Of a stretch of 64,000 nt of DNA, positions 1 through 25,613 are shown piece after piece. Position numbers and translations under genes: made by a program. The DNA comes from Promethearchaeia archaeon (GTDB lineage Archaea > Asgardarchaeota > Lokiarchaeia > Sigyniarchaeales > SOKP01). Positions within the stretch are counted from its first letter, which is position 1, and each line of letters begins with the position of its first letter. The DNA lies in contig JAHQWK010000026.1 in the NCBI GenBank assembly GCA_029856145.1, positions 1 through 64,000 of the forward strand, in the 5' to 3' direction. The notes under the pieces are model-generated. The model searched no databases and was not told the DNA's origin. It saw only the letters and a program-made list of their open reading frames with translations.

Positions 1-28
1 TACAAGAAGTACCAAGTAATGATCAATT

Positions 29-340
29 ATGAGCATACTCCTTATAAATAAACATCATCAACCACATACAACTATAGCTGTTGCTAAAATGCTTATAAAA
101 CAGCCAAGAGCAATCCCACATGTTACACAATGGCGTCTTTATAATACTGCTGCAGGGAAGGATGGAATGAAGCAATACCACTTAATTTATACAGAAAGAG
201 GAAAGTTAGAAGAGGCATCAATGGCTGTTTATAAATATTTTTTTCCTTTTACAACCCAAGTTGAGGGGTATAATATGATAGTCGAAACTCTAATTGGAGT
301 TTCAGATTCCTATAAGATGATAGGAATGAAATGGGAGTAA
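29..340 (+). CDS. hypothetical protein
   Basis: 103-aa ORF with an in-frame stop just upstream, followed by a T-rich tract; no motif recognised. Confidence 0.6.
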   Translation: MSILLINKHHQPHTTIAVAKMLIKQPRAIPHVTQWRLYNTAAGKDGMKQYHLIYTERGKLEEASMAVYKYFFPFTTQVEGYNMIVETLIGVSDSYKMIGMKWE

Positions 341-373
341 TTTAATTTATAATTTAATTTTTTTTTATTTTAT

Positions 374-1120
374 TTATTTTGCTTTCCCTTGGCTAGCAAC
401 GGCTTCTATTGCCTTTTCAATTTCTTCTTGGTCACCTAGATAATAATGAGTGATTGGTTTCAAGTCATCATCTAACTCATATATTAAAGGTACTCCTGTA
501 GGAATATTTAATTTCACTACTTCTTCATCGGGTATGTTATCAAGATACTTCACGAGTGCTCTTAAGCTATTCCCATGGGCCGAAATCAAAATCTTCTTGC
601 CAGATTTTATAGTTGGAGTAATAACATCATGCCAATAAGGTAATACTCTGGCAACTGTGTCTTTTAAACATTCAGTTAAAGGAATCTCATCAGGACTTAA
701 ATCTGCATATTTTGCTTCATTTCCAGGATATCTTGGATCGCTAGTCTTTAGAGCAGGTGGGGGTATATCATAGCTTCTTCTCCAGATTAACACCTGTTCT
801 TCACCCACTTCAGTGGCCATTTTTGCTTTGAAAAATCCTTGTAAAGCACCATAGTGCCTTTCATTTAAACGCCAAGATCGATAGATAGGAATCCACATTA
901 AGTCCATTTCATCTAACACAATCCATAATGTCCGAATTCCTCTCTTTAATACTGATGTGAAAGCAATATCAAACGTATATCCTCCTTCTTTTAATAATTT
1001 TGCAGCTTCTGTCGCTTCTTGAATTCCTTTTTCTGAAAGGTCTACGTCAGTCCAACCAGTAAATCTATTCTCTTTGTTCCACGTACTTTCCCCATGTCTT
1101 AAAAGTACTACTTTATACAT
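374..1120 (-). CDS. gpmA: 2,3-bisphosphoglycerate-dependent phosphoglycerate mutase
   Basis: [40 protein letters not shown] and AHGNSLR motifs. Confidence 0.97.
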
Positions 1121-1244
1121 ATTTAATCATATTCTTAAATTATATTAGTTATGTTATGTAATAATTTTAAAACTTAATATATATCTTTACTTTTTATATC
1201 ATAGAATTATAATTCACATATGATTTACACGAGAGAGAGATAAA

Positions 1245-1931
1245 TTGAGAGAAAGTGGAATTTTAAAAGGTGCATCGAGGAAAGAAGAAAACTGGAAGAA
1301 AGTTAAGTTTGGTGAGCCTTTTGAGCAAGCTTTAGATCGATTCAGAGAAAATGTTCAGAATCGAAATGATTTTGATCCAACTTCATTGCTTCAATTTGGT
1401 TTGTTTATGTCTATGGCTGTTATTAATATATTAAAAGAAAATGAAGCAATATTTGGAATTGAAGGTCAAAAAGTAGTTAACGATGCCTTAATAAAAACGG
1501 TATATGAAGTGGGAAAACAAATTGTCGAAAATGTTGAAATTCCCCCCGATGTTTCTGACATAGAATTAATGAGTTTCTTAGCAACAATAATTAACACTCA
1601 AGCATGGACATCTATAGAAGAACCTAAGATAGATAATGAAGATAGATGTTCCTTTAATATTTTATGGTGTCCACTCCAAGATATTTATTCTGCTTTTGAT
1701 TGCAGGGTGCAAAGATATTTAGTCCAAGGGATCATCAATTATTTTCAAGAAAATCTTCTTAAAGCAGAATTTCAAGTAGAGTTTAAACACACAATTCCCG
1801 CTGGTGCTGAATGTTGCCGATTTGTTATAGATAGGAAAAATCCAGGAGAACAAAATAAATGGGAGACATATTCACGATTGTTAGAGCGTAAAGCACTAGA
1901 GAGATTAAATGAAAGAAAGAAAAAGGATTGA
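1245..1931 (+). CDS. V4R/ATC-hydrolase-like ligand-binding protein
   Basis: WCP...DC...TIPAGAECCRF cysteine pattern. Confidence 0.6.
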   Translation: MRESGILKGASRKEENWKKVKFGEPFEQALDRFRENVQNRNDFDPTSLLQFGLFMSMAVINILKENEAIFGIEGQKVVNDALIKTVYEVGKQIVENVEIPPDVSDIELMSFLATIINTQAWTSIEEPKIDNEDRCSFNILWCPLQDIYSAFDCRVQRYLVQGIINYFQENLLKAEFQVEFKHTIPAGAECCRFVIDRKNPGEQNKWETYSRLLERKALERLNERKKKD

Positions 1932-1965
1932 AATTATATAAAGAATTTATAACTAATTTAGGACT

Positions 1966-2175
1966 TTGAAAAATATGTCAATAAAATTCAATATAGAGGA
2001 AATAGAATACAAAATTAATGAATTTTTGATAATTAACAAAAGTAAAAAATTTTCTGTTAGCGATATTATGTCAAAAATTCGAGAATGGTATCCATTTGAA
2101 TTTGATGTTGGGGGGCAAATGGGTATTTTACAGATGTTAATGAAAATGGTGGAAGACGGCCGAATAATAAAGTAA
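1966..2175 (+). CDS. small hypothetical protein, possible winged helix
   Basis: 69-aa ORF; FSVSDIMSKI...LMKMVEDGRI resembles a wHTH. Confidence 0.4.
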   Translation: MKNMSIKFNIEEIEYKINEFLIINKSKKFSVSDIMSKIREWYPFEFDVGGQMGILQMLMKMVEDGRIIK

Positions 2176-2527
2176 AGAATAATAATTAATATTACTGAAA
2201 TATATCATCTATTACTTCACAGTTAGAATTATTCTATGTGAACCGTCAATTTTAGTCAATAAAAACTTAGAAAATCAAGAATTTCTTGAGATAAATAATA
2301 GAGAGTTAAAAAGAGGAGTCCTCAAGAAATGAAGGAGAAATAAAAAATGAAATACAATGCGAGATTTAAGGAAGAAATTAAAAAAAAAAATTAACTCAAC
2401 AAACAACAGTTTGGGTATTTAATTCTATTGCATACACTCATCCTGAAATATTGACAATCCATTTCTTTCAATTAATTGCCGTTTAAAACCATTAAATTTT
2501 TAAAAGAAGTAATATAGGGAAAAAAAT

Positions 2528-3184
2528 ATGTCAGTAGAATATAAAGGTAAAGAATATAAAGTGAAAGGAAAAGAAGGGAAGAGATCTCTAGATTTAAAAG
2601 GAATTAAAATAACTGATATAACCGAAATTAAAGGACTTAATGCTTTAACTGACTTAAACAAATTAAAACTTAATAAAAATCAGATCTCGGAGATTAAAGG
2701 CCTTGAGAATTTAACAAACCTAAAAAAATTAAATCTTTCGGATAATCAAATTACAGAGATTAAAGGCCTTGGAAACTTGACGAATCTGCAAGAATTGTAT
2801 TTATCACACAATAAAATTACCGAGATTAAAGGCTTGGAGAACTTGACGAATTTAAAAGTAATATGGCTTGATCATAATCAAATCTCGAAAATTAGAGGAT
2901 TAGATACTTTAACAAAATTATATCTACTATACTTGGGTTCTAACAAAATTATTACAATAGATGGAATTGGAAATTTAAAAAGTTTAACTGCTTTGCATTT
3001 TTACGGAAATCCTGTTCAAAAATGGCTTGAAAAGAATTCTCACGTTACAAAATTTGGTTATGTTAAAAAACCTCAAAAACTGGTAGAGTATTGTCACTTA
3101 AAAGATGTATCAAAATCGGGAGTAGTCAAAAAAGTTGAACAACCTGACGTAAAAAAGTTGCATGAACTATTTAAAAAAGATTAA
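2528..3184 (+). CDS. leucine-rich repeat protein (SDS22-like)
   Basis: About six 22-aa repeats LxxLxLxxNxIxEIKGLENLTN. Confidence 0.93.
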   Translation: MSVEYKGKEYKVKGKEGKRSLDLKGIKITDITEIKGLNALTDLNKLKLNKNQISEIKGLENLTNLKKLNLSDNQITEIKGLGNLTNLQELYLSHNKITEIKGLENLTNLKVIWLDHNQISKIRGLDTLTKLYLLYLGSNKIITIDGIGNLKSLTALHFYGNPVQKWLEKNSHVTKFGYVKKPQKLVEYCHLKDVSKSGVVKKVEQPDVKKLHELFKKD

Positions 3185-3451
3185 ATTTTAACATAAAACC
3201 TTATCAAACTGCATAATATCAATTACTAGCCTAAAAATATTATTAAGATTGGATTTAACCCATTATCTAAAATTTTTACTTTATATTATTATTCATTAAA
3301 CCATCCTTAGAATATGCAGTACGAGAGCGACTATTAAGTTTATTTTTAAGATAAAAATCATAATAAATTTTTTACATATCTTCCAATATTTCAATTAGAA
3401 TTTTGAAGGCTCGTGCTTTCATGTTTTCAAGTTTGTATCTGAATATTTTAT

Positions 3452-14963: not shown

Positions 14964-15458
14964 TTATTCAGGAATAATAATTGAATGATCTTCTTTTATT
15001 CGGTCTAAAACAATTTCAGTTTTGACTTCTTCTACTCCTGGAAGATTACGAAGTTTTTCAATAAGACCCATAGAATCTGAATGATTCAAACATTTTGCCA
15101 TAATAAATAAAGGATATTCACCAGTAACTACATAAGCATACTTGATTTTTTCCATTCCCTCGATCTCTTGTTTCACATGCTCTAATGGTTTTGTAGCATT
15201 TACTCTTAAAGACGCCATAACCATTTCTCTATAACCTAACTGGCGGCAGTCTATTAACGCAACATATTTTTTAATTAAATCCTTTTCTAATCTTTGAATA
15301 CGAGATCTAATAGCTGTCTGGCTTTTCTCTTCTTCTAAATTTTCTTTAATTTTTACTTTTATTTGGTTAATAGTTATTTTTGCATCTTCTTGTAAAAGTT
15401 CAAGAATCTGTTTGTCTACTTCATCGATTATCTTATTTGCTGAATTTGTAGTAACCAT
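14964..15458 (-). CDS. Lrp/AsnC family regulator
   Basis: IDEVDKQILELLQEDAK HTH; VTGEYP RAM domain; divergent from the sulfur/Hdr cluster. Confidence 0.93.
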   Translation of the reverse strand: MVTTNSANKIIDEVDKQILELLQEDAKITINQIKVKIKENLEEEKSQTAIRSRIQRLEKDLIKKYVALIDCRQLGYREMVMASLRVNATKPLEHVKQEIEGMEKIKYAYVVTGEYPLFIMAKCLNHSDSMGLIEKLRNLPGVEEVKTEIVLDRIKEDHSIIIPE

Positions 15459-15987: not shown

Positions 15988-16356
15988 ATGTCTAAATATG
16001 TTTTCTTTATTAGCACGGAACCTTACAAATATCAAGCTGTAGATTCTCTGATAGAAATAGGAAAAGCTGCACTAAGAAAGGGGCATGAAATAACGGGTAT
16101 ATTCTTCTTTGGAACTGGTGTTTACAATCTTAAAAAGGAGATTAATTGTGGAACTACTATAAGAAACATCCCAGAGAAAATTGAGAAATTTTCCTATGAG
16201 AATAAAATTCCAGTTGCAGGTTGTAGTACATGGGTTAGTTTAACAGGACTTAAAGAACCTGAATTCATTGAAGGTGCGTCTGAAGAGGGATTAGGGGATT
16301 TTTCAAACTGGACAATTAAAGCTGACAAATTAATTGTATTTGGAGCTGGTGGTTAA
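15988..16356 (+). CDS. dsrE: DsrE/TusD-like sulfurtransferase subunit
   Basis: GHEITGIFFFGTGVYN; conserved Cys in VAGCSTW; ADKLIVF. Confidence 0.85.
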   Translation: MSKYVFFISTEPYKYQAVDSLIEIGKAALRKGHEITGIFFFGTGVYNLKKEINCGTTIRNIPEKIEKFSYENKIPVAGCSTWVSLTGLKEPEFIEGASEEGLGDFSNWTIKADKLIVFGAGG

Positions 16357-16361
16357 AAATT

Positions 16362-16730
16362 ATGGTAGAATCTGTGGTAATAATAAGTGATCAATCGCCT
16401 ATTGGAAGAAATTCGGCAGTTGAGGCTATTAGAATCGGATCGGGATTCACTGCTCTTGGAGAATTTATTGACTGCAAAATTGTATTTATGGGAGATGCTG
16501 TGTATCTATTTAATAAAAATTGCGACCCTGAAGCTGTGGGAATGGACCCTCTTGCTGAAGTATTAGAAATGGCTGATTTATCTGATTTAGAAGTATTTAT
16601 GATTGATTCTTCTTTAACTGACGCGGGATTAACCAAAGCTGATATGATTGACTATGAAAACTTGAAAATCATTGGATATGATGAATTAACAGATTTAATT
16701 GCTAATGCTGATACGTGTTTTAGATATTAA
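16362..16730 (+). CDS. dsrF: DsrF/TusC-like subunit
   Basis: SPIGRNSAVEAIR, VFMGDAVY, DSSL..AGL; lies between dsrE and dsrH. Confidence 0.8.
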   Translation: MVESVVIISDQSPIGRNSAVEAIRIGSGFTALGEFIDCKIVFMGDAVYLFNKNCDPEAVGMDPLAEVLEMADLSDLEVFMIDSSLTDAGLTKADMIDYENLKIIGYDELTDLIANADTCFRY

Positions 16731-16746: not shown

Positions 16747-17088
16747 ATGTCAGAAAATCTTGATATGATATATTTGTTTGGATTTAGTGGGTTAACGGGA
16801 AATCAATTACAGAGATTAATACCTATTTTAAAAAGCCAGATTAAAAAGAATACGAGACTTGGATTAGTTTTAATTCACGATGGCGTAATAGGCATAACAA
16901 CAAAGGGAAAAATACCAAAACAAATGGAAGAACTTCTCAGTTTAGATGTGGCTGTGTTTGCTATGAGATCAGATATGAGAGCTCGCGGTATTGCTCCAGA
17001 ATATGTACATGACAAAATTAAGTTTATAGAATATGATGATCTAATAGATGTTATAGATGCTACGCCAAAAGTTATTTCTTGGATGTAG
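16747..17088 (+). CDS. dsrH: DsrH/TusB-like subunit
   Basis: LIHDGV, DMRARGI, IEYDDLIDVI, terminal VISWM. Confidence 0.85.
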   Translation: MSENLDMIYLFGFSGLTGNQLQRLIPILKSQIKKNTRLGLVLIHDGVIGITTKGKIPKQMEELLSLDVAVFAMRSDMRARGIAPEYVHDKIKFIEYDDLIDVIDATPKVISWM

Positions 17089-17207
17089 CAAGGTAAGAAA
17101 ATTAAATTCGCAAAATTTTTTGAAAAATTCTGGCTAAAACCAGAAAATATAGAGTATTAAACAAACAAAAAGGAAATTTTTAAAAAAAACAAAAAAAGGT
17201 GGTATAT

Positions 17208-17630
17208 GTGGCTGAAACTGAAACAATAAATTTTATAGTAAAGGATAAGTCATTTGAGAAGTTTGCGATGATGGCTATCCTTGGTTCAACAGGCGACGCG
17301 ATGGATGTGAAAATGAACTTTTTCTTTACCTTTTGGGGTTTGAATTTATTAACAAAAAAATTTAAGCCAAAAGTTGCTGGAATGCCTACTCCTATGAAAG
17401 GCATGGGAGCAAAAATATTTAGAAAAAGGATGAAAAAGTTTGGGATAGAAGATCCATGGGCTTTAATTAAAGACGGTGTCGAAAGCGGTAATTTGAAGTT
17501 ATATCCATGTCAAATGACCATGGATTTAATGAAAATTAAGCATGAAAATATAATCGATTTTGCTGAAGAACCTGTTGGTGCTGCTTCATTTTTAGAAATG
17601 AGTAATGGCGGCAGAATAGTTTCATTATAA
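17208..17630 (+). CDS. DsrE2/YrkE-like sulfur carrier
   Basis: FFTFWGL, LYPCQMTMDLM, VGAASFLE; GTG start after an AGGTGG RBS. Confidence 0.88.
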   Translation: MAETETINFIVKDKSFEKFAMMAILGSTGDAMDVKMNFFFTFWGLNLLTKKFKPKVAGMPTPMKGMGAKIFRKRMKKFGIEDPWALIKDGVESGNLKLYPCQMTMDLMKIKHENIIDFAEEPVGAASFLEMSNGGRIVSL

Positions 17631-17681
17631 ATTAAAATAAATTTTTTTTTTTATTTTTTATATTAAAAAAGGTGATGATAA

Positions 17682-18239
17682 ACGTCTGATGTAGAAGAAC
17701 AAGCAAGGGAATATAAAACAGACGAAGATTTTAATAAAGATTTTTTTAAAGATATTGAAAGAAAATCAAATATTTGGCAGTGCATTCAATGTGGTACATG
17801 CACAGCGAGCTGTGAAAGTGGTAGATGGACTGCTTTAAAGACTCGTTCAATTATTAGAAAAGTTATTTTAGGAGATTTATCGGTATTAAATGATCCTGAT
17901 ATATGGTTGTGTACTACATGTTATCAGTGCTATGAACGATGTCCGCGTGATGTAAGACCTACAGATGTTATTATGGAGTTGCGAAATTATGCTACTAAAT
18001 TAGGGAATATTTCTCCTAATCATAGGGCTGTTGTAGGGTATTTAAAAAACTTTGGACATGCCGTACCGATAAATGAAGAAGTAAAAAAACGAAGAGTCGA
18101 ATTAGGATTAGAAGAATTACCTCCTACTGCGTTTAAGTTTAAACAGGAGGGGGATGATAAAGATTTAAAAAATTTTGAAGAACATATGTTCGATTTACCT
18201 CCAGTTAAGGAGGAAAAAAAGGAAGAAGAGGAGACGTAA
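17682..18239 (+). CDS. hdrC: heterodisulfide reductase subunit C, apparent ACG start
   Basis: Frame is open from an ACG at 17682, preceded by an in-frame TAA and an AAGGTGA RBS; CIQCGTCTASC and WLCTTCYQCYERCPR. The ORF track only calls it from 17907. Confidence 0.9.
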   Translation, partial: TSDVEEQAREYKTDEDFNKDFFKDIERKSNIWQCIQCGTCTASCESGRWTALKTRSIIRKVILGDLSVLNDPDIWLCTTCYQCYERCPRDVRPTDVIMELRNYATKLGNISPNHRAVVGYLKNFGHAVPINEEVKKRRVELGLEELPPTAFKFKQEGDDKDLKNFEEHMFDLPPVKEEKKEEEET

Positions 18240-18242
18240 AAA

Positions 18243-19163
18243 ATGGTAAAAGAAAACATATTTGCTTTCTTTTTAGGTTGTTTGATGCCAAATCGATATC
18301 CTGCTATTGAAAAATCAACGAAATTTGTAATGGAAAAACTAGGATACGAAATTTTAGATATGGAAAGAGCAACATGTTGTCCTGCGCCAGGAGTCTTCAG
18401 ATCATTTAATAAAATTGATTGGATGGTTGCTGCGGCAAGAAATTTATGTATAGCAGAACAATTAGATGCTGACATATTGACTGTTTGTAATGGATGTTTC
18501 GGAACACTCCAAGAGGTTAATAAACACTTGAAAACAAATGAAGAGCATCGTGAAATGGTAAATGAAAAATTAAAACTCATCGGAGATTATGAGTTTAAGG
18601 GAACGATAGATGTTCGACATATTGCTGAAGTGTTAGGTTATGAGATAGGTCCATGGGGGATTGAAGATCATATAGTTCGAAAAGTTAATGCTAGAGCTGC
18701 AATACATTATGGTTGTCATTTTCTGAAACCTACTAGAATTAGAGAGATTGAAAGCTCAGAAGGACCAACAATTGTAGAAGAATTCGTTGAAGCTTTAGGA
18801 ATTCAATCTGTACGATTCAATGAACAATTAACTTGCTGTGGTGCTGGAGGAGGTGTTAAAGCCTATGATGGTAATGCAAGTATGACTATATTTGCAGAGA
18901 AGATGAAAAATATTGATGATGTAAAGCCAGATTTTATATTAGATATTTGCCCCTTCTGTCATCTCCAATATGAAACGGGACAAGATTACTTGAATAAAAA
19001 TAAGAACTGTAATTACGATTATCCTGTAATTCATCTTTCTCAATTAACTGCCTATTGTATGGGGATGGATAAAGAATTTGTTGGTTTACATTATCAACTA
19101 ATGGGGAAAGATTATATCTTTGGGGGAGAAGAAATAAGAAAAGAAATAAAGGAGGCAATTTAA
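18243..19163 (+). CDS. hdrB: heterodisulfide reductase subunit B
   Basis: FFLGC, TCCPAPG, CNGC, HYGCH, TCCGAGGG, CPFC (two CCG domains). Confidence 0.95.
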   Translation: MVKENIFAFFLGCLMPNRYPAIEKSTKFVMEKLGYEILDMERATCCPAPGVFRSFNKIDWMVAAARNLCIAEQLDADILTVCNGCFGTLQEVNKHLKTNEEHREMVNEKLKLIGDYEFKGTIDVRHIAEVLGYEIGPWGIEDHIVRKVNARAAIHYGCHFLKPTRIREIESSEGPTIVEEFVEALGIQSVRFNEQLTCCGAGGGVKAYDGNASMTIFAEKMKNIDDVKPDFILDICPFCHLQYETGQDYLNKNKNCNYDYPVIHLSQLTAYCMGMDKEFVGLHYQLMGKDYIFGGEEIRKEIKEAI

Positions 19164-19211
19164 TTGACAGTAAAAAATCAGAATATAAAAGAAACAGAAG
19201 AGGTTGAGAGT

Positions 19212-21194
19212 ATGGCAACATCTGAAGATTCTGAAGAACCTAGAATTGGTGTTTTTGTTTGTCATTGTGGTCATAATATAGCTGGAACAGTTGATGTGGC
19301 TGAAGTTGCTGAGTATGCTAAAACTTTACCGAATGTTGTTAAATCTGAACATTATATGTTTATGTGTTCCAAACCAGGAGTTCAAATGGTTAAAGATTCT
19401 ATAAAAGAATTAGGTGTTAATCGAACAGTGGTAGCTTCTTGTTCTAAAAATCAACATGGCAAGACCTTTGCTAGAGCAATTGAAGAAGTGGGATTAAATA
19501 AACACCGTCATCAACAAGTTAACGTAAGAGAATATAATAGTTGGGTTCATAAGAAAGAAAAAGAAAAAGCAACTCAAAAAGCTATGAAATTGGTTGAAGC
19601 AGGGGTAAATCGAGCTAGAAAGTTAGAAGATGTAGAAACAAGAAGAATTCCAACAACAAAAGCGGCATTAGTTATAGGAGCTGGAATTGCTGGACTTCGA
19701 TCGGCTTATGATATGGCAGAATTAGGTATTCCTGTATATCTAGTGGAAAAGGAATCAACTATTGGAGGCCATATGACACGATTAAATAAAACATTCCCTA
19801 CTTTAGAATGCCCACAATGTTCAATATCCCCTCTCACGAATGGAGTAGCTAATCATCCTTTAATAGAACTTTATACTAATGCTCAAATCAAGAATGTTGA
19901 GGGATCGTTAGGAAACTTTGAAATTGAGATTGAAATTAAACCTAGGTATGTTAAGGATAATTGTACTTCTTGTGGCGAATGTGCTACTCATTGTCCAGTC
20001 GAATTACCGAGCGAATGGGATATGGGGATGTCTATGAGGAATGCAATTTATAAAGCATATCCACAAGCAATACCCGCTACTTATGTAAGAGATAAGAAAA
20101 ATTGTATTGAATGTAATACATGTATTAATATTTGTCCTGTTCAAGCTATTGATTTTTCAATGAAACCAGAAACAAAAACTGTGAAAGTTGGATCCATCAT
20201 TGTTGCTGCTGGATATGCTGAATATAATCCATCTGAAATTGAACCCTATCATTATGAACAAGAAGGATATGAAGATGTTATTACTCAGTTAAAATTAGAA
20301 CGAATGATGTCTCCAACATCGCTTACTAATAGTGAAGTTCTACGACCCTCTGATGGAAAAATCCCAAAAAGTGTAGTCATGATCCAATGTGTAGGGAGTA
20401 GAAATGATCAAGTTGGAAATCAATATTGTACTGGTGTATGTTGTAAATTTGCAATAAAAAATGCAAGAATTATTAAAGAAAAGTATCCTGATACTGAGGT
20501 ATCGATATGTTATATAGATATCAGAACACCAGGATTAAATTTTGAAGAATTGTATAAATCTGCTCAGGAGATTGGAGTGAGATTTATACGAGGAAGACCG
20601 TCCGAAATCATAAAAGATCCTATTTCAGGAGAATTATATGTAATTGTTGAAGATACATTAAGTCAGACACCTTTGAAACTAAAAGCAGATATTGTAGTAT
20701 TGAGTGCCGCAATGGTGCCACCTGAGGGTATTGGTCCTTTAGGATCTAAACTTCATGTCTTGCGTTCAAAAGAAGGATTTCTAAAAGAATTTCATATTAA
20801 AATGAATCCAACCTTAAGTAGTAAGGGAGGAGTTTTCTTAGCGGGAACAATTCAAGGCCCAAAGGATATTACAGAAACTGTTGCTCATGCGGGAAATGCT
20901 GCTGCTTTAGCTGCAGCTCCTTTAGTTAAAGGTTATATCGAAAGGGAAATGTTAGTTCCTTCAATTAATTATGATTTATGTGTAAATTGCGGATTATGTA
21001 AAACTGTATGCGCTCCTGCAGCAATAGATATTGATGAAAATGGTGCTCCAGTTGTAAATGAAATTGCGTGTAAATCTTGTGGCATGTGTATGCCAGTGTG
21101 TCCTACAGGAGCTATTCAATTAATTAATTTTAGAGATGATCAACTATTAGATGAAATTATTGCCGTATCTGGCGGAGGTGCTGTTTGCGAATGA
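19212..21194 (+). CDS. hdrA: heterodisulfide reductase subunit A
   Basis: IGVFVCHCGHNI, GAGIAG, KTFPTLECPQC, inserted and C-terminal ferredoxins, IQCVGSR, QGPKDI; ATG at 19212 has a GAGG RBS (alternative TTG at 19164). Confidence 0.96.
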   Translation: MATSEDSEEPRIGVFVCHCGHNIAGTVDVAEVAEYAKTLPNVVKSEHYMFMCSKPGVQMVKDSIKELGVNRTVVASCSKNQHGKTFARAIEEVGLNKHRHQQVNVREYNSWVHKKEKEKATQKAMKLVEAGVNRARKLEDVETRRIPTTKAALVIGAGIAGLRSAYDMAELGIPVYLVEKESTIGGHMTRLNKTFPTLECPQCSISPLTNGVANHPLIELYTNAQIKNVEGSLGNFEIEIEIKPRYVKDNCTSCGECATHCPVELPSEWDMGMSMRNAIYKAYPQAIPATYVRDKKNCIECNTCINICPVQAIDFSMKPETKTVKVGSIIVAAGYAEYNPSEIEPYHYEQEGYEDVITQLKLERMMSPTSLTNSEVLRPSDGKIPKSVVMIQCVGSRNDQVGNQYCTGVCCKFAIKNARIIKEKYPDTEVSICYIDIRTPGLNFEELYKSAQEIGVRFIRGRPSEIIKDPISGELYVIVEDTLSQTPLKLKADIVVLSAAMVPPEGIGPLGSKLHVLRSKEGFLKEFHIKMNPTLSSKGGVFLAGTIQGPKDITETVAHAGNAAALAAAPLVKGYIEREMLVPSINYDLCVNCGLCKTVCAPAAIDIDENGAPVVNEIACKSCGMCMPVCPTGAIQLINFRDDQLLDEIIAVSGGGAVCE

Positions 21195-21643
21195 GTGAAT
21201 GTGAAACCACTGACGAATTGATAAAAGAAAAGATTCAAGATGTTGTTGTTTTTATGTGTAACGAATGTGGTCAAGGATCTGCTAATACTGCTGGTGTTGC
21301 ACGAATAAATTATGATCCCGCAATAAGAATAATCAGAATTCAATGTACAGGTCAAATTGGTCCTATTCAAATTATGGATGCATTAAATAATGGGGCAGAT
21401 GCTGTTGCTTGCGTTGGATGCTGTTTAGGAGCTTGTCATTTTTTTAATGGAAATGTACTTTCAATGCATAGAATTAAACTGATGAAGAAGTTATTTAAAG
21501 AGTTAGGATATAGTGATCAATTTGTAAACCAATATACTTCTCGAGCAGCAGAAGGCGAAACCGCTGTAGGCGATTTTGAAGATATTATAGATAGATTATC
21601 AACTGCAATTAAAGATGAGGGGACGATTAAAGATGGATGTTAA
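21191..21643 (+). CDS. mvhD: MvhD/FlpD [2Fe-2S] subunit
   Basis: FMCNEC, RIQCTGQI, GADAV..GCCLGACHF..GN; ATGA overlap with hdrA. Confidence 0.9.
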   Translation: MSECETTDELIKEKIQDVVVFMCNECGQGSANTAGVARINYDPAIRIIRIQCTGQIGPIQIMDALNNGADAVACVGCCLGACHFFNGNVLSMHRIKLMKKLFKELGYSDQFVNQYTSRAAEGETAVGDFEDIIDRLSTAIKDEGTIKDGC

Positions 21644-22868
21644 AGTGTTTCAATTCAATGGTTGTAATAAATGTTTTAACGAAACATTACTCCTAAAGTT
21701 GGATTCTAATTATAAAGTACGGTTTATAGAAGAACCACAAAAATGGAAAGGAGAAAATACAGAAGTTGCGGTAATCACGGGATATCTATTACCAAATGAT
21801 AAAGAACATCTCGAGAGAATTAAAGTAAACTCAGAACGAGTTATTGCATATGGAGATTGTACAACCATGGGAGGTGTATTTGCATTAGCAAATCAACATG
21901 GTTATGAAATTACTCCTTTAAAAGATTTAATTGATAATCAAATAAATGTTAATGGTTGTTTAGGGGAAATTGAAGAATTAAAAGCGGTGATTGACAGAGA
22001 AGAACCATCAAAACTAAGGCCTCTCTGTGAGGTGTGTGCACGTAGGGCAACTTGTGAATACTTAGATGCTGTACAACGTCAGATTGAATCAGATGATAAC
22101 GAAACGTGTTACAATGATTTAGGATTTCTGTGTAATGGATTTATAGCTAAAGAATGTAAAGAACGATGTATCAATTACAACACACCTTGCAGAGGTTGCC
22201 AACCAATGGTGGAAAGATCTGGTATTAGAATGTTAGGAATGTTCGGCACTCTTATGGGAAATATTGAAGTTGCTACTGAGCACTCTGAAAAGGGTGCAAC
22301 TGATAAACTTGGAGATGAAGAAGATGATGTAACAAGAAGTTTGCCAGATATTCTTGGTAACTTCTTTAGATTCACACTACCTACCTCTGGTTTGCCTAAA
22401 GGAAGAGTAAAATCTTCAGGTACAATATTAGAAGATGTATTTACAGGAAGATTAATTGAAGAATTGCCGTTAATTTCTGGATTATTAGGAGGAAGTAAGT
22501 CAATTTCATTAACTCTAAAAATTATTGAATCCTATGAAGAAGCGAATCAAATTGAAGTAAGCGAGAAAACAAAGAAATATCGTGAAGAATTATTGAAATT
22601 AGAAACAGATCTAAAGAAAGCTTTAGAAAATGAGGATCCAAAACAGTATAAAGAAATAACTAGTAAAATTCGAAAAATTGCTGGTAATATGAATTTATCT
22701 AACATCTTCTTTGGTGGATTTAAATCCCAAATTAATGAAAATGACAATTTTGATGATTACAAAACCCACGTTTTTGAAGTGATTGAAGGAACCTATAAGA
22801 ACGGTTCAGTTGAATATACCATAGATCCTAATGGGATAGTTAAAGAAATTAAGATAAAAGGGGGATAA
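21633..22868 (+). CDS. MvhG/FrhG-like Fe-S subunit with long C-terminal extension
   Basis: GCNKC, YGDCTTMGG, NGC, CEVC, C..C..C..C..PCRGC; about 190-aa tail not typical of MvhG. Confidence 0.78.
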   Translation: MDVKVFQFNGCNKCFNETLLLKLDSNYKVRFIEEPQKWKGENTEVAVITGYLLPNDKEHLERIKVNSERVIAYGDCTTMGGVFALANQHGYEITPLKDLIDNQINVNGCLGEIEELKAVIDREEPSKLRPLCEVCARRATCEYLDAVQRQIESDDNETCYNDLGFLCNGFIAKECKERCINYNTPCRGCQPMVERSGIRMLGMFGTLMGNIEVATEHSEKGATDKLGDEEDDVTRSLPDILGNFFRFTLPTSGLPKGRVKSSGTILEDVFTGRLIEELPLISGLLGGSKSISLTLKIIESYEEANQIEVSEKTKKYREELLKLETDLKKALENEDPKQYKEITSKIRKIAGNMNLSNIFFGGFKSQINENDNFDDYKTHVFEVIEGTYKNGSVEYTIDPNGIVKEIKIKGG

Positions 22869-22870
22869 AT

Positions 22871-25342
22871 ATGAGTTTTGAACTATTGAAAAAAGAAATT
22901 ATTGATGTTGGATTATGCCAAGGTTGTGGATTATGTGTCGGCTTCTGTAAGCATATTGAGATGGAAATATTACGGCCTACATTAAAGGATTATTGTATAC
23001 TTGAAAGAAATGGACAAGATTGCGGTAAATGTTATCAAAGTTGTCCTCAAGTTATCCAGAAAAAGTTTAAACAAAAACTACCTATAGCAATTTATTCTTT
23101 AAGAAGTAAAAATCCTGAAATTTTGGCAAAAGCTGCTAATGGTGGTGTAGTTACAACCCTAGCTAAAAATCTATTAGATAGTCAAACACTTGCTGAAATA
23201 ATTATGGTCCAAGATATAGATGAAAAACCTCAAGCAGATATTGTAACTGATCCTGATGAAGTTGTAAAAAAGGCTGGAGTAGTATACGGACGTTCAGGAG
23301 TTTTAGAAAAATTAGTAGAAGTTGTTGGAGAGACTTTCGAACCCGTAGGAATTGTTGGCGTTCCTTGTGAGATGAGAGGTGCTGCTGAATTGGAGGAAGA
23401 AATGAATAGAGAAATCTTAAAAATTGGTTTATTTTGTAATTCTCACATGCGAACAGAACAAACTGACAAAGGAATAGTATGTTCTCCTTGCTGTAGTGGT
23501 TGTCCATCAGGGGTAAATGCACAAGGATATATTTCCTTAATTAGACAAGGTCAATATCAAGACGCTGTTGAGTTAATCCGTGAAAGTAACCCACTCCCTT
23601 CCATATGTGGAAGAATTTGTACTAATGAATGTGAACATAGTTGTACTTTAATTGGAGATGACCATCCAGTAGCAATCCGAGAACTTAAGAAATTTGTTAC
23701 TGAATGGGAGATAAAACAAGATAAAAAGAATAGTATGAAAGGTAAAAGAAATATTAAAAAAGGTGCTAAAAAGGTGGCAATTATTGGTTCTGGACCAGCA
23801 GGGTTAACTGCGGGATATTTTTTAAGAAGAATGGGTTATGCACCAACTATTTTTGAAAAATCAGATCAAACAGGAGGAATGTTAAGATTCGGTGTACCGC
23901 AATTTAGATTACCAAATTATGTATTAGATTACGATGTACAAAATATTAAAAATTCAGGGGTCGAAATAATTCTAAATAAGCCATTAGGACCCGAAATGAC
24001 GATTGAAGACTTAAAAAATAATGGATTTGAAGCTATTTTCATAGCTACTGGCCAATACAAACCTCGAACACTTCATTTAGAAGGAGAAGACCTTCCTAAT
24101 GTTCATGTAGCAATTACTTTTTTAATGGATAGAAAATACCGCTATTGGGAAAATAAAGAAGAGTTTAAAGGAAAAACTCTGGGGATAATTGGTGGTGGTC
24201 CTGTAGCAATTGATGTTGCTCAAACTGCCCTTCGATTAGGTGCAGCCAAAGTTCATCTTGTTGATATAATGTCAGAAGAGCAACTTAAACTAGTTTTAAA
24301 GGATATTCCTAAAAATGAAATGGATTATATGAAATATCATTTTACTACATCAACTTCTAGAATTACTCAGAACAATGAAGGGAAACTGGTGTTAAATTGC
24401 TATAAAATTGAATGGGGAACTCCCGATGAAAATGGAAAAAGACCGTTAAATAAGATTGAAGATTCCGATTATGAAATTCAAATTGATTCAATTATAATTG
24501 CTGTTGGTCAAGCTGTTGATTTTGAACAGATTGATATTGCTACTGATAATAAGTTAGAAAAAGAGCGAAATAAGATTAAAATAAATGAAGTTACCTTTGA
24601 AACTAACATTCCTGGAGTATTTGCAGGTGGAGACATAATTAGCAATTCAAAAGCAGTAGCAATTGCGGCAATAGCCCATGGTAAAGAAGCTGCCTTTTCA
24701 ATAGATAGATTCCTAAAAGGAGAGGATTTAAAAACAGGACGATATAAACAAGATAAAATGTTTTTCACAGGACCTAAAAAATCTCCAAAAGATTATTCTC
24801 CTAAACCAGGAAATCTAGAAGAAGCTACTGAAGAAATTCAGTGGAGTTTTGAAGAGATTGATCAAATGTTTAATGAAGATATGGCATTACAAGAAGCTCG
24901 CAGATGTTTAAGTTGTAATCATTTTTGCTCTCATTGTCAAGATTTTCCAGCAATTTATTCAGATTTAACTGCTGGTGAAGTTGGTTCTCAAAAAGGGTAC
25001 ACAACAATTGTAGTCTGGACTGATAGAGGTAAAGAAATTGTAGAGACTGCAATTAGAAACGGTTTATTTGAAGAAGGCGAAGTGAACGAAGTCGAATTAA
25101 ACAAAGCAATTAACCTTAAGTCAAAACGAGAACTTTTGACTTTTGAAAAAACTCCAAGGCAACGAATTTTAGATTATATCACCCTTCAAGGATCAAGTAC
25201 TATAAGTGACCTGACAAAACAATTAGATTTAGAACCAAAAAAGGTCAGATATGAAGCACTTCGACTAGCTCAATTAAAGCAAATTGAAATGAAAGTTGAT
25301 CCTGAAATGGATGAGCCATTATTTACTTTAATATGTGATTAA
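22871..25342 (+). CDS. ferredoxin-FrhB/FdhB-like protein with inserted GltD/SudA-type flavoprotein module and C-terminal wHTH
   Basis: AANGGVVTTL, GVPC, GLFC | PCCSGCP, ICGRIC, GSGPAG, GGGPVA, FAGGD, RRCLSC | CSHCQDF..DLTAGEVGS..GYTTIVVWTDRG | wHTH. Confidence 0.85.
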   Translation: MSFELLKKEIIDVGLCQGCGLCVGFCKHIEMEILRPTLKDYCILERNGQDCGKCYQSCPQVIQKKFKQKLPIAIYSLRSKNPEILAKAANGGVVTTLAKNLLDSQTLAEIIMVQDIDEKPQADIVTDPDEVVKKAGVVYGRSGVLEKLVEVVGETFEPVGIVGVPCEMRGAAELEEEMNREILKIGLFCNSHMRTEQTDKGIVCSPCCSGCPSGVNAQGYISLIRQGQYQDAVELIRESNPLPSICGRICTNECEHSCTLIGDDHPVAIRELKKFVTEWEIKQDKKNSMKGKRNIKKGAKKVAIIGSGPAGLTAGYFLRRMGYAPTIFEKSDQTGGMLRFGVPQFRLPNYVLDYDVQNIKNSGVEIILNKPLGPEMTIEDLKNNGFEAIFIATGQYKPRTLHLEGEDLPNVHVAITFLMDRKYRYWENKEEFKGKTLGIIGGGPVAIDVAQTALRLGAAKVHLVDIMSEEQLKLVLKDIPKNEMDYMKYHFTTSTSRITQNNEGKLVLNCYKIEWGTPDENGKRPLNKIEDSDYEIQIDSIIIAVGQAVDFEQIDIATDNKLEKERNKIKINEVTFETNIPGVFAGGDIISNSKAVAIAAIAHGKEAAFSIDRFLKGEDLKTGRYKQDKMFFTGPKKSPKDYSPKPGNLEEATEEIQWSFEEIDQMFNEDMALQEARRCLSCNHFCSHCQDFPAIYSDLTAGEVGSQKGYTTIVVWTDRGKEIVETAIRNGLFEEGEVNEVELNKAINLKSKRELLTFEKTPRQRILDYITLQGSSTISDLTKQLDLEPKKVRYEALRLAQLKQIEMKVDPEMDEPLFTLICD

Positions 25343-25376: not shown

Positions 25377-25613
25377 ATGAAATTTGATATGGAATTAAAT
25401 GTCTGCGGGTCAGTATGCCCTGTTCCTGCTTTAAAAACTAAAAAACAACTTATGAAAATGAGGCCTGGAACTGTTTTAAAAGTAATAACAGATTACAAAC
25501 CTGCTAGTGAATCTGTTCCACGTGATTTAGCAAAAACAAAGCATAAACATTTAGGAACAGACTTCATAGAAGACGATGAGCAATGGAATATGTATTTTGA
25601 AGCAGTAAAGTAA
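25377..25613 (+). CDS. tusA: second TusA/SirA sulfur carrier
   Basis: LNVCGSVCPVP (CPxP), TDYKPASESVP. Confidence 0.9.
   Translation: MKFDMELNVCGSVCPVPALKTKKQLMKMRPGTVLKVITDYKPASESVPRDLAKTKHKHLGTDFIEDDEQWNMYFEAVK

Follow-up and report, generated by a model that had tools for sequence, protein, structure and literature searches.

An FrhB-fold flavoprotein interrupted by a GltD/NfnB-type cassette in a hydrogenase-less hdr operon of Loki-order Asgard archaea

Results

Using a 64,000-nucleotide (nt) stretch of contig JAHQWK010000026.1 (positions 1 to 64,000 of the forward strand; assembly GCA_029856145.1) from a Promethearchaeia archaeon, which we refer to as the window, we analyzed a gene encoding an 823-amino acid (aa) protein (P0001) in which an FrhB-type iron-sulfur flavoprotein is interrupted by a GltD/NfnB-type flavoprotein cassette, and which lies in an operon with hdr genes (Table 1). 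We propose that this nested protein is the pyridine-nucleotide arm, i.e., the arm for reduced nicotinamide adenine dinucleotide (NADH), of a hydrogenase-less Hdr-type complex made up of HdrABC, MvhD and an MvhG-like iron-sulfur subunit, and we hold this proposal, on balance and by a modest measure, to be the probable one.

A split FrhB domain

Our Pfam search identified a short Fer4 match at aa 10-26, FrhB_FdhB_N (PF04422) at aa 75-146 (50.1 bits, above the gathering cut-off of 22), Fer4_20 at aa 192-283 (85.9 bits) and Pyr_redox_2 at aa 300-604 (93.4 bits), and a whole-genome scan matched FrhB_FdhB_C (PF04432) in two stretches, with aa 158-202 corresponding to profile positions 3-50 and aa 668-740 to profile positions 79-149. 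Since profile positions 51-78 are missing between these two stretches, the domain is interrupted at this point, with the GltD-type module filling the gap, and the protein does not contain a complete, contiguous PF04432 that includes the helix and three-strand sub-domain of the F420 channel. The NCBIfam models PRK12771, gltA and NfnB-like cover approximately aa 200-690, and the frhB and FpoF models cover the flanks, all with scores under their curated cut-offs; for example, PRK12771, the nearest model to the cassette, scored 388.3 bits against a cut-off of 516, and frhB (TIGR03289) and FpoF (NF040616) scored 76.6 and 68.6 bits against equivalog cut-offs of 331.5 and 475. These profile scans bear out the initial annotation, made from the letters of this DNA, which had described a complete GltD-type module inside a split FrhB and two flavin folds in one chain, in that the FrhB fold and the GltD-type cassette are both recognised. 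The motifs quoted in that annotation are likewise all in place, i.e., GGVVTTL at aa 91-97, GVPC ending at C166, GLFC ending at C189, CSHC at aa 686-689, DLTAGEVGS at aa 698-706, TIVVWTDRG at aa 712-720 and LVDI at aa 463-466. An assembly chimera, a concern raised at the same time, is ruled out by the 61 full-length genomic copies that we found in independent assemblies, and the nested open reading frame (ORF) is therefore real.

The host part of the protein has as its best sequence matches Fsr (7np8) and the F420-reductase subunits of the Ethanoperedens carbon monoxide dehydrogenase (CODH) and Fwd complexes (8riu, 8rja; PMC11493965). Residues C166, C189, C686 and C689 align with the four cluster Cys of the family and are invariant in 30 sequences, and the view that the FrhB cluster ligands stand on both sides of the insertion thus stood up, with C166 and C189 before it and C686 and C689 after it. 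On this alignment, the cassette is spliced between the second and third Cys ligand of the FrhB cluster, after C189. When mapped onto FrhB of M. marburgensis (3zfs_C), residues 74-175 of the nested protein correspond to FrhB 9-113 and residues 685-744 to FrhB 191-250, and the loops that bind flavin adenine dinucleotide (FAD) are conserved (G91, G92, Y139-G140-R141 and D698..G705-S706). The ferredoxin-like domain at the N-terminus contains eight invariant Cys (16, 19, 22, 26, 42, 51, 54 and 58), consistent with two [4Fe-4S] clusters like those of FpoF, Fsr and the F420 reductase subunits 8rja/8riu (PMC10229431). Across the whole protein, 20 Cys are invariant in the 30 sequences, at identities down to 46%, a number that fits five predicted [4Fe-4S] clusters, of which the ferredoxin domain and the cassette would each contain two and FrhB one. 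The likely cofactors of the nested protein are FAD and [4Fe-4S] clusters.

In a full-length AlphaFold2 (AF2) model, with a predicted local distance difference test score (pLDDT) of 69, the two FrhB halves come together as a single FrhB fold, and the check for reassembly suggested in the initial annotation thus came out in its favour. The best matches of this fold were FrhB chain 9r51_B, with Z 22.4 and a 3.1 Å root mean square deviation (rmsd) over 204 of 282 residues (model 66..759 against chain 1..276), ElpB chain 8rvu_E, with Z 21.5 and rmsd 3.2 Å over 194 residues (model 72..758 against chain 1..264), and chain 8rja_K, with Z 21.2 and rmsd 3.1 Å over 202 residues (model 37..758 against chain 12..350).

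A circularly permuted cassette

The cassette contains an FAD Rossmann motif (GSGPAG, aa 306-311) and an NAD(P) Rossmann motif (GGGPVA, aa 441-446), and eight invariant Cys (C207, C211, C246, C250, C254, C258, C679 and C682) that align with the motifs of NfnB and StnC and would form two [4Fe-4S] clusters, as expected for a complete module of this type. Its closest solved relatives are NfnA of the Bfu-type NfnABC (9n5u, 9bov), StnC (8oh5_C) and NfnB/NfnL (4ylf_B, 5jca_L), with the comparison to the StnC/NfnA modules giving E values from 6e-85 (9n5u) to 5e-76 and Z scores of 28-29. In NfnB (4ylf_B), the element NFxEV..EA.RCLxC is N-terminal (residues 10-47) and stands directly before HPCxxGCP, whereas it is C-terminal to the flavin domain in the nested protein (aa 650-686), in 9bov (residues 535-569), in 8oh5 and in 9n5u. 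The cassette opens with SPCCSGCP, and its closing element reads EARRCLSC and bears C679 and C682. Judged by this order of motifs, the cassette is a circular permutant of the StnC/NfnA type with both of its ends in its own iron-sulfur sub-domain, which explains why splicing into a loop is possible.

Assigning all four Cys of the run C679-x2-C682-x3-C686-x2-C689 to the FrhB cluster was considered and rejected, because RCLxC is a trait of the cassette family; C679 and C682 are therefore assigned as cassette ligands, and C686 and C689 as FrhB ligands. With C682 only four residues from C686, in an eleven-residue stretch common to both, the cassette and FrhB clusters must adjoin.

The same homology bears on the possibility that the FAD of the cassette is itself a site of electron bifurcation, so that the system would contain two bifurcating flavins, one in the cassette and one in HdrA. 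In NfnB/NfnL, to which the cassette is homologous, the FAD does bifurcate, and the same idea has been proposed for the HdrA-NfnB fusions of ANME-1 (PMC9012536). However, the operon does not encode an NfnA/NfnS-like partner, with [2Fe-2S] and FAD, that could serve as the high-potential branch. In Bfu enzymes, the flavobicluster bifurcation site lies outside the GltD-like module. The nearest relatives of the cassette are of this StnC/NfnA type and belong to enzymes that are reported to bifurcate at the flavobicluster site, and we regard a second bifurcation site in the nested protein as quite improbable.

Nucleotide specificity of the cassette

The GltD-like modules of StnC and of the Bfu-type NfnA bind NADPH. 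Examination of the end of the second beta strand (beta2) of the nucleotide Rossmann fold demonstrated that the cassette reads LVDI at this position, with Asp465 in place of the YRR that forms the site for the 2′-phosphate of NADPH, where most of 143 representative GltD-type relatives read xxYR; LVDI was found in none of the relatives listed from these 143. This is in keeping with the original call, by which the beta2 end is of the NAD(H) type and not of the NADPH type. The acid residue is kept in all operon copies, as Asp or, in the relative P0122, as Glu, and a divergent second copy (P0123) reads VIYRR. Alternation between Asp/Glu and YRR is as would be expected at a working determinant of NAD versus NADP, and we infer that the cassette has an NAD(H)-type site, with NADH as the probable substrate.

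The genomes that carry the nested gene also encode a paralog of approximately 920 aa that combines an HdrC-like dicluster domain with a GltD module and a pair of HdrB-like CCG domains. The GltD part of this paralog is the closest relative of the cassette (55-57% identity) and likewise reads LVDI, which suggests that an NAD-type GltD clade has been repeatedly wired to Hdr-type chemistry in these archaea. In the genome under study, this paralog is located outside the window, on contig C25 (72268-75027), with an FrhB paralog approximately 6 kb downstream on the same contig; a further copy is present at positions 599-3376 of locus L072.

The F420 site

Cryo-electron microscopy of Frh from M. marburgensis identified Cys134 of FrhB as a cluster ligand and the sub-domain formed by FrhB 128-188 as a wall on one side of the putative access channel for F420 (PMC3930138), and the equivalent stretch of Fsr (204-253) forms a lid (PMC10229431). 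Six FrhB paralogs from the same genome have approximately 55 residues between GLFC and CxxC, and these residues have no counterpart in our alignment of the nested protein. As judged from this alignment, the cassette replaces the helix-plus-sheet element of the wall or lid, and the C189 loop, which corresponds to Cys134, is retained. The conserved QDGG of FrhB reads A/S-N/S-GG in the nested protein and its relatives. The initial annotation had assumed an intact F420 site and had considered a role as an F420:NAD transhydrogenase; since the channel wall is the part that the cassette replaces, the first assumption is not supported and reactivity with F420, and with it the transhydrogenase role, is doubtful rather than expected, and we read the protein mainly as an NADH port.

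The alternative is a dual-donor arm in which the FrhB flavin still exchanges hydride with F420 and the cassette serves as a new channel wall, with F420H2 and NADH either both feeding Hdr or interconverting via the common FrhB cluster. Several observations speak for it, in that no variation occurs in the FAD loops or the four cluster ligands of FrhB, F420 would be available in this organism (CofH, CofE and Mtd are encoded), and the FrhB part is structurally closest to F420-dependent enzymes (Z 19-22), with the ferredoxin-dependent HCAR lower (Z 17). The lost channel wall, the altered QDGG and the frhB and FpoF equivalog scores far under their cut-offs all argue in the opposite direction, and we consider that such an arm, or an F420:NAD transhydrogenase, is unlikely. 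As a separate observation, nine further FrhB-family paralogs are present in the genome of this non-methanogen, several of them in pairs on contigs C7 and C30.

The C-terminal winged helix

The winged helix that had been suggested at the C-terminus is real, with aa 746-823 modelled as a winged helix of the order H-H-H-beta-beta at a pLDDT of 84.5. This tail is present in all members of the family, the P0123 paralog included, and R793, L797, L799, P816 and F818 are invariant even between tails of 36-45% identity. Its nearest solved domains are the Zalpha domains of PKZ (4lb5, rmsd 1.0 Å over 57 residues, 33% identity, E 6e-4; E 1e-4 for the alignment profile of the tail against PKZ Zalpha), and many MarR/ArsR-type winged helices were tied with Zalpha in a VIA comparison (Z 8.4-10). 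In Zalpha domains such as those of ADAR1 and PKZ, Z-DNA is contacted by Asn and Tyr of the recognition helix and by Trp of the wing. HMMER aligns these Asn, Tyr and Trp residues of PKZ with R793, L797 and F818, and we rejected assignment to the Zalpha-type Z-DNA-binding family, since the key contact residues are absent despite the close fold.

A conserved winged helix with five invariant residues would also be in keeping with a free-standing NADH-dependent oxidoreductase that doubles as a regulator, i.e., a "trigger enzyme", with the winged helix binding DNA or RNA and with no docking to Hdr. The setting of the gene argues against this, as translational coupling ties it into the hdr operon at 55 of 56 loci. 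In addition, the tail has no specific family signature, given the VIA ties over many winged-helix types, the positions with which Zalpha contacts Z-DNA are R and L in this protein, and winged helices also act as protein-protein modules. We judge a regulator of this kind to be very unlikely.

The operon and its flanks

The nested gene takes tenth place in a row of eleven genes of one orientation that abut or overlap, and T-rich runs follow tusA. The operon contains no gene for a hydrogenase large subunit, and the only NiFe large-subunit (PF00374) match in this 97%-complete genome is on another contig. HdrA is the ordinary 676-aa form with no GltD match and is thus not a type III HdrA. We counted the conservation of the operon over the 61 loci with a full-length copy, and this analysis demonstrated that the MvhG-like gene is directly upstream in 55 of 56 loci, that tusA follows within 200 nt in 57 of 60, and that all nine upstream genes are present in 37 of the 37 loci with enough flank. 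The connection to HdrA suggested in the initial annotation is therefore well founded, in that the nested gene is part of a strictly conserved operon with hdrA, hdrB, hdrC and mvhD. A complex of P0001 (1-760) with the MvhG-like protein (1-235), predicted from our own alignments, gave an interface score (ipSAE) of 0.00 in both runs, which were made without controls and are not used either way.

Table 1. Features of the nested gene and of its operon (positions in the window)
Feature	Position	Strand	Remarks
Whole gene, 823 aa (P0001)	22871..25342	+	Ferredoxin domain, FrhB N-half, GltD/NfnB-type cassette, FrhB C-half and winged helix, in this order
N-terminal ferredoxin-like domain, aa 1-70	22871..23080	+	Eight invariant Cys
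FrhB N-half, aa 71-203	23081..23479	+	GG(V/F)VTT FAD loop; cluster ligands C166, C189
Inserted GltD/NfnB (StnC/NfnA)-type cassette, aa 204-683	23480..24919	+	Fer4_20 region, two Rossmann motifs, permuted C-terminal element
LVDI, aa 463-466, beta2 end of nucleotide Rossmann fold	24257..24268	+	Replaces xxYR(R) of NADPH-binding relatives
FrhB C-half, aa 684-745	24920..25105	+	Ligands C686, C689; SDLTAGEVGS loop; TIVVWTDRG
Linker and C-terminal winged helix-turn-helix	25106..25339	+	Helices 762-773, 778-785, 789-801; wing 805-820
dsrE-like, operon gene 1	15988-16356	+	
dsrE/F-like, operon gene 2	16362-16730	+	
dsrH-like, operon gene 3	16747-17088	+	
DsrE2-type, operon gene 4	17199-17630	+	
hdrC, operon gene 5	17682-18239	+	Apparent ACG start
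hdrB, operon gene 6	18243-19163	+	
hdrA, operon gene 7	19164-21194	+	676 aa
mvhD, operon gene 8	21185-21643	+	
Hydrogenase small-subunit-like (MvhG-like, Oxidored_q6), operon gene 9	21633-22868	+	Ends 2 nt before nested gene
tusA, operon gene 11, last	25377-25613	+	Pfam 65.5 bits; 35 nt downstream of nested gene

Two further features of this region were observed. The first ferredoxin motif of HdrC is encoded upstream of the first ATG, GTG or TTG (window 17670-17700), and the hdrC frame opens at ACG (17682), 7 nt past GGTGATGATAA. The run ACG TCT GAT GTA is identical at the hdrC start in at least 12 other species, with ATG TCT GAT at this place in others, which suggests either an ACG initiation codon or that gene callers truncate hdrC. 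In addition, 530 bp of intergenic DNA separate the operon from a divergently oriented gene for an Lrp/AsnC-like regulator (14964-15458, minus strand), and this stretch is a candidate control region for the whole cluster.

Distribution of the nested architecture

We identified more than 120 full-length relatives as sequence clusters, at 72-93% identity and from many assemblies labelled as Asgard (Promethearchaeota) metagenome-assembled genomes. When clustered at 50%, the nested architecture occurs in three clusters only, which are P0122 (57% identity), P0123 (47% identity) and the cluster of the nested protein itself. Among species-representative genomes, our scan found 76 loci, all but two of them labelled Promethearchaeota/Asgard or "uncultured archaeon", and these loci include the complete genome of the cultured Lokiarchaeum ossiferum, Promethearchaeum spp. 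and Sigynarchaeum. In a phylum sample of 301 genomes, searched at a threshold of E <= 1e-100, full-length copies were present only in the family of the window, in 2 of 7 genomes of a sister family in the same order, and in one outlier (G295, 86% identity) from a different Asgard family, with no match at this threshold in the remaining more than 200 genomes. The nested protein is thus typical of one Asgard order, i.e., the Loki-order.

Some loci depart from this pattern. The divergent second copy of the P0123 type (46-47% identity) follows tusA at two loci of Promethearchaeum sp., L058 (8106-10549) and L066 (265-2709), and the L058 copy appears to be broken into two ORFs (145 aa and 639 aa). 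In one record labelled as a Nanopelagicaceae bacterium (L074), a contig assigned to an actinobacterial bin carries a GltD fusion gene of the Asgard type; both this case and the G295 outlier are probably binning errors, with transfer also possible.

Discussion

Our analysis describes a scaffold of the FpoF/FrhB type, with a two-cluster ferredoxin domain and a one-cluster FrhB fold, that would bear a complete cassette of the StnC/NfnA type with FAD, an NAD(H) site and two [4Fe-4S] clusters. If this protein is the NADH arm of the Hdr-type complex, electrons would pass from NADH to the FAD of the cassette, from there via the two cassette clusters to the FrhB cluster, then via the two N-terminal ferredoxin clusters to the MvhG-like subunit, and on through MvhD to HdrA's bifurcating FAD. 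The path could also run backward to form NADH. HdrBC would act on a disulfide or persulfide, possibly one borne by the co-encoded TusA/DsrE proteins. Arms of the FrhB type that feed Hdr via MvhD are known from Fdh-Hdr and Elp-Hdr (PMC12350162), and an Hdr-related iron-sulfur domain has been found before to contain an inserted GltD cassette (PMC9012536, PMC12054007). The architecture, the conserved ligands, the reassembled FrhB fold of the model, the NAD-type motif and the operon linkage follow from the analysis itself; the electron path and its direction, the physical association with the Hdr subunits and the sulfur substrate are inferred.

Four points weigh against reading the protein as an NADH port. 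The call of NAD over NADP is drawn from a single motif. The FAD loops of FrhB are conserved, which would be unexpected if the FrhB flavin had no substrate. In its gene content, the organism makes and uses F420, with CofH (466 bits) and CofE (271 bits) both above their cut-offs and Mtd at 351 bits, so F420 may have a role. Finally, the full-length model is of moderate quality only (pLDDT 69; predicted template modelling score, pTM, 0.51), and its cassette matches solved relatives at Z 24-29 but with an rmsd of approximately 12 Å. A further possibility is that the FrhB cluster is a three-way junction between an NADH flavin, a second flavin still reactive with F420 or another hydride carrier, and the wire to the bifurcating HdrA. 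The operon would then encode a bifurcating enzyme free of hydrogenase, with NADH or F420H2 as its driving donor and a persulfide bound to TusA/DsrE as its acceptor; we put this forward as a speculative scheme that is more probably wrong than right by a wide measure.

The nested protein shares parts with several known systems. ElpB (Elp-Hdr of M. marburgensis, 8RVU) and FdhB (Fdh-Hdr of M. hungatei, 7BKB-E) are likewise FrhB-fold iron-sulfur flavoproteins encoded with mvhD and hdrABC (PMC12350162). The likeness to Elp-Hdr goes further, in that the MvhD-type ElpC and HdrA are fed by an FdhB-like flavoprotein together with an FdhA remnant that has no catalytic activity (PMC12350162), i.e., an iron-sulfur "wire" subunit is present without its catalytic partner: ElpA is an FdhA without molybdopterin, and the operon described here has a small subunit without the large subunit. 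ElpB and FdhB differ in that their F420 channel is intact and F420H2 is used; in the nested protein, the wall is exchanged for a cassette of approximately 480 aa of the NAD(H) type, and a winged helix is added. Type III HdrA, or HdrA9-11, of ANME-1 and Bathyarchaeia (PMC9012536, PMC12054007) also contains a GltD/NfnB cassette of approximately 500 aa in an iron-sulfur domain of an Hdr system, namely in HdrA's ferredoxin domain, and a direct NAD(P)H port has been proposed for it in silico. The host there is HdrA, whereas in these Loki-order Asgard archaea it is FrhB. StnC (S. ovata StnABC, 8OH5) and NfnA (Bfu-type NfnABC, 9BOV, 9N5U) are circularly permuted in the same way, with a C-terminal EA.RCLxC, but their modules are fused end to end with formate-dehydrogenase-like domains, whereas the cassette described here is nested and has Asp for YRR. 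With FrhB (4OMF/9R51) and the N-terminal half of FpoF/Fsr (7NP8), the protein has in common the fold (Z 22.4 and 16.3), the four-Cys cluster and the FAD loops, together with an N-terminal two-cluster ferredoxin domain like that of FpoF and Fsr; it differs from them in having no lid sub-domain, in reading AN/SS-GG for QDGG and in scoring under the equivalog cut-offs. The literature that we searched, an incomplete collection, held no description of a GltD cassette nested in FrhB, in line with the initial annotation, which knew of no characterised protein built in this way.

Previous work showed that, in sediments, Loki-type Asgard archaea express hdr genes without mvhADG, with the electron donor to Hdr only guessed at, e.g., as "FlxABCD-like" (bioRxiv 10.1101/826495; 10.1101/726976). 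The nested protein is the only plausible substrate-binding subunit of the strictly conserved, hydrogenase-less Hdr operon in this order, and it is present in the cultured L. ossiferum, so that its donor specificity would fix one leg of Asgard energy metabolism, with a bearing on syntrophy models of eukaryogenesis. The protein also illustrates clearly that the permuted GltD cassette, with both ends in its iron-sulfur sub-domain, can be plugged into different iron-sulfur hosts, HdrA in ANME-1 and Bathyarchaeia and FrhB in this lineage. The NADH-port hypothesis is directly testable in existing cultures, and if the three-way junction were true, the operon would encode a core energy module, as yet undescribed, of these Loki-order relatives of eukaryotes.

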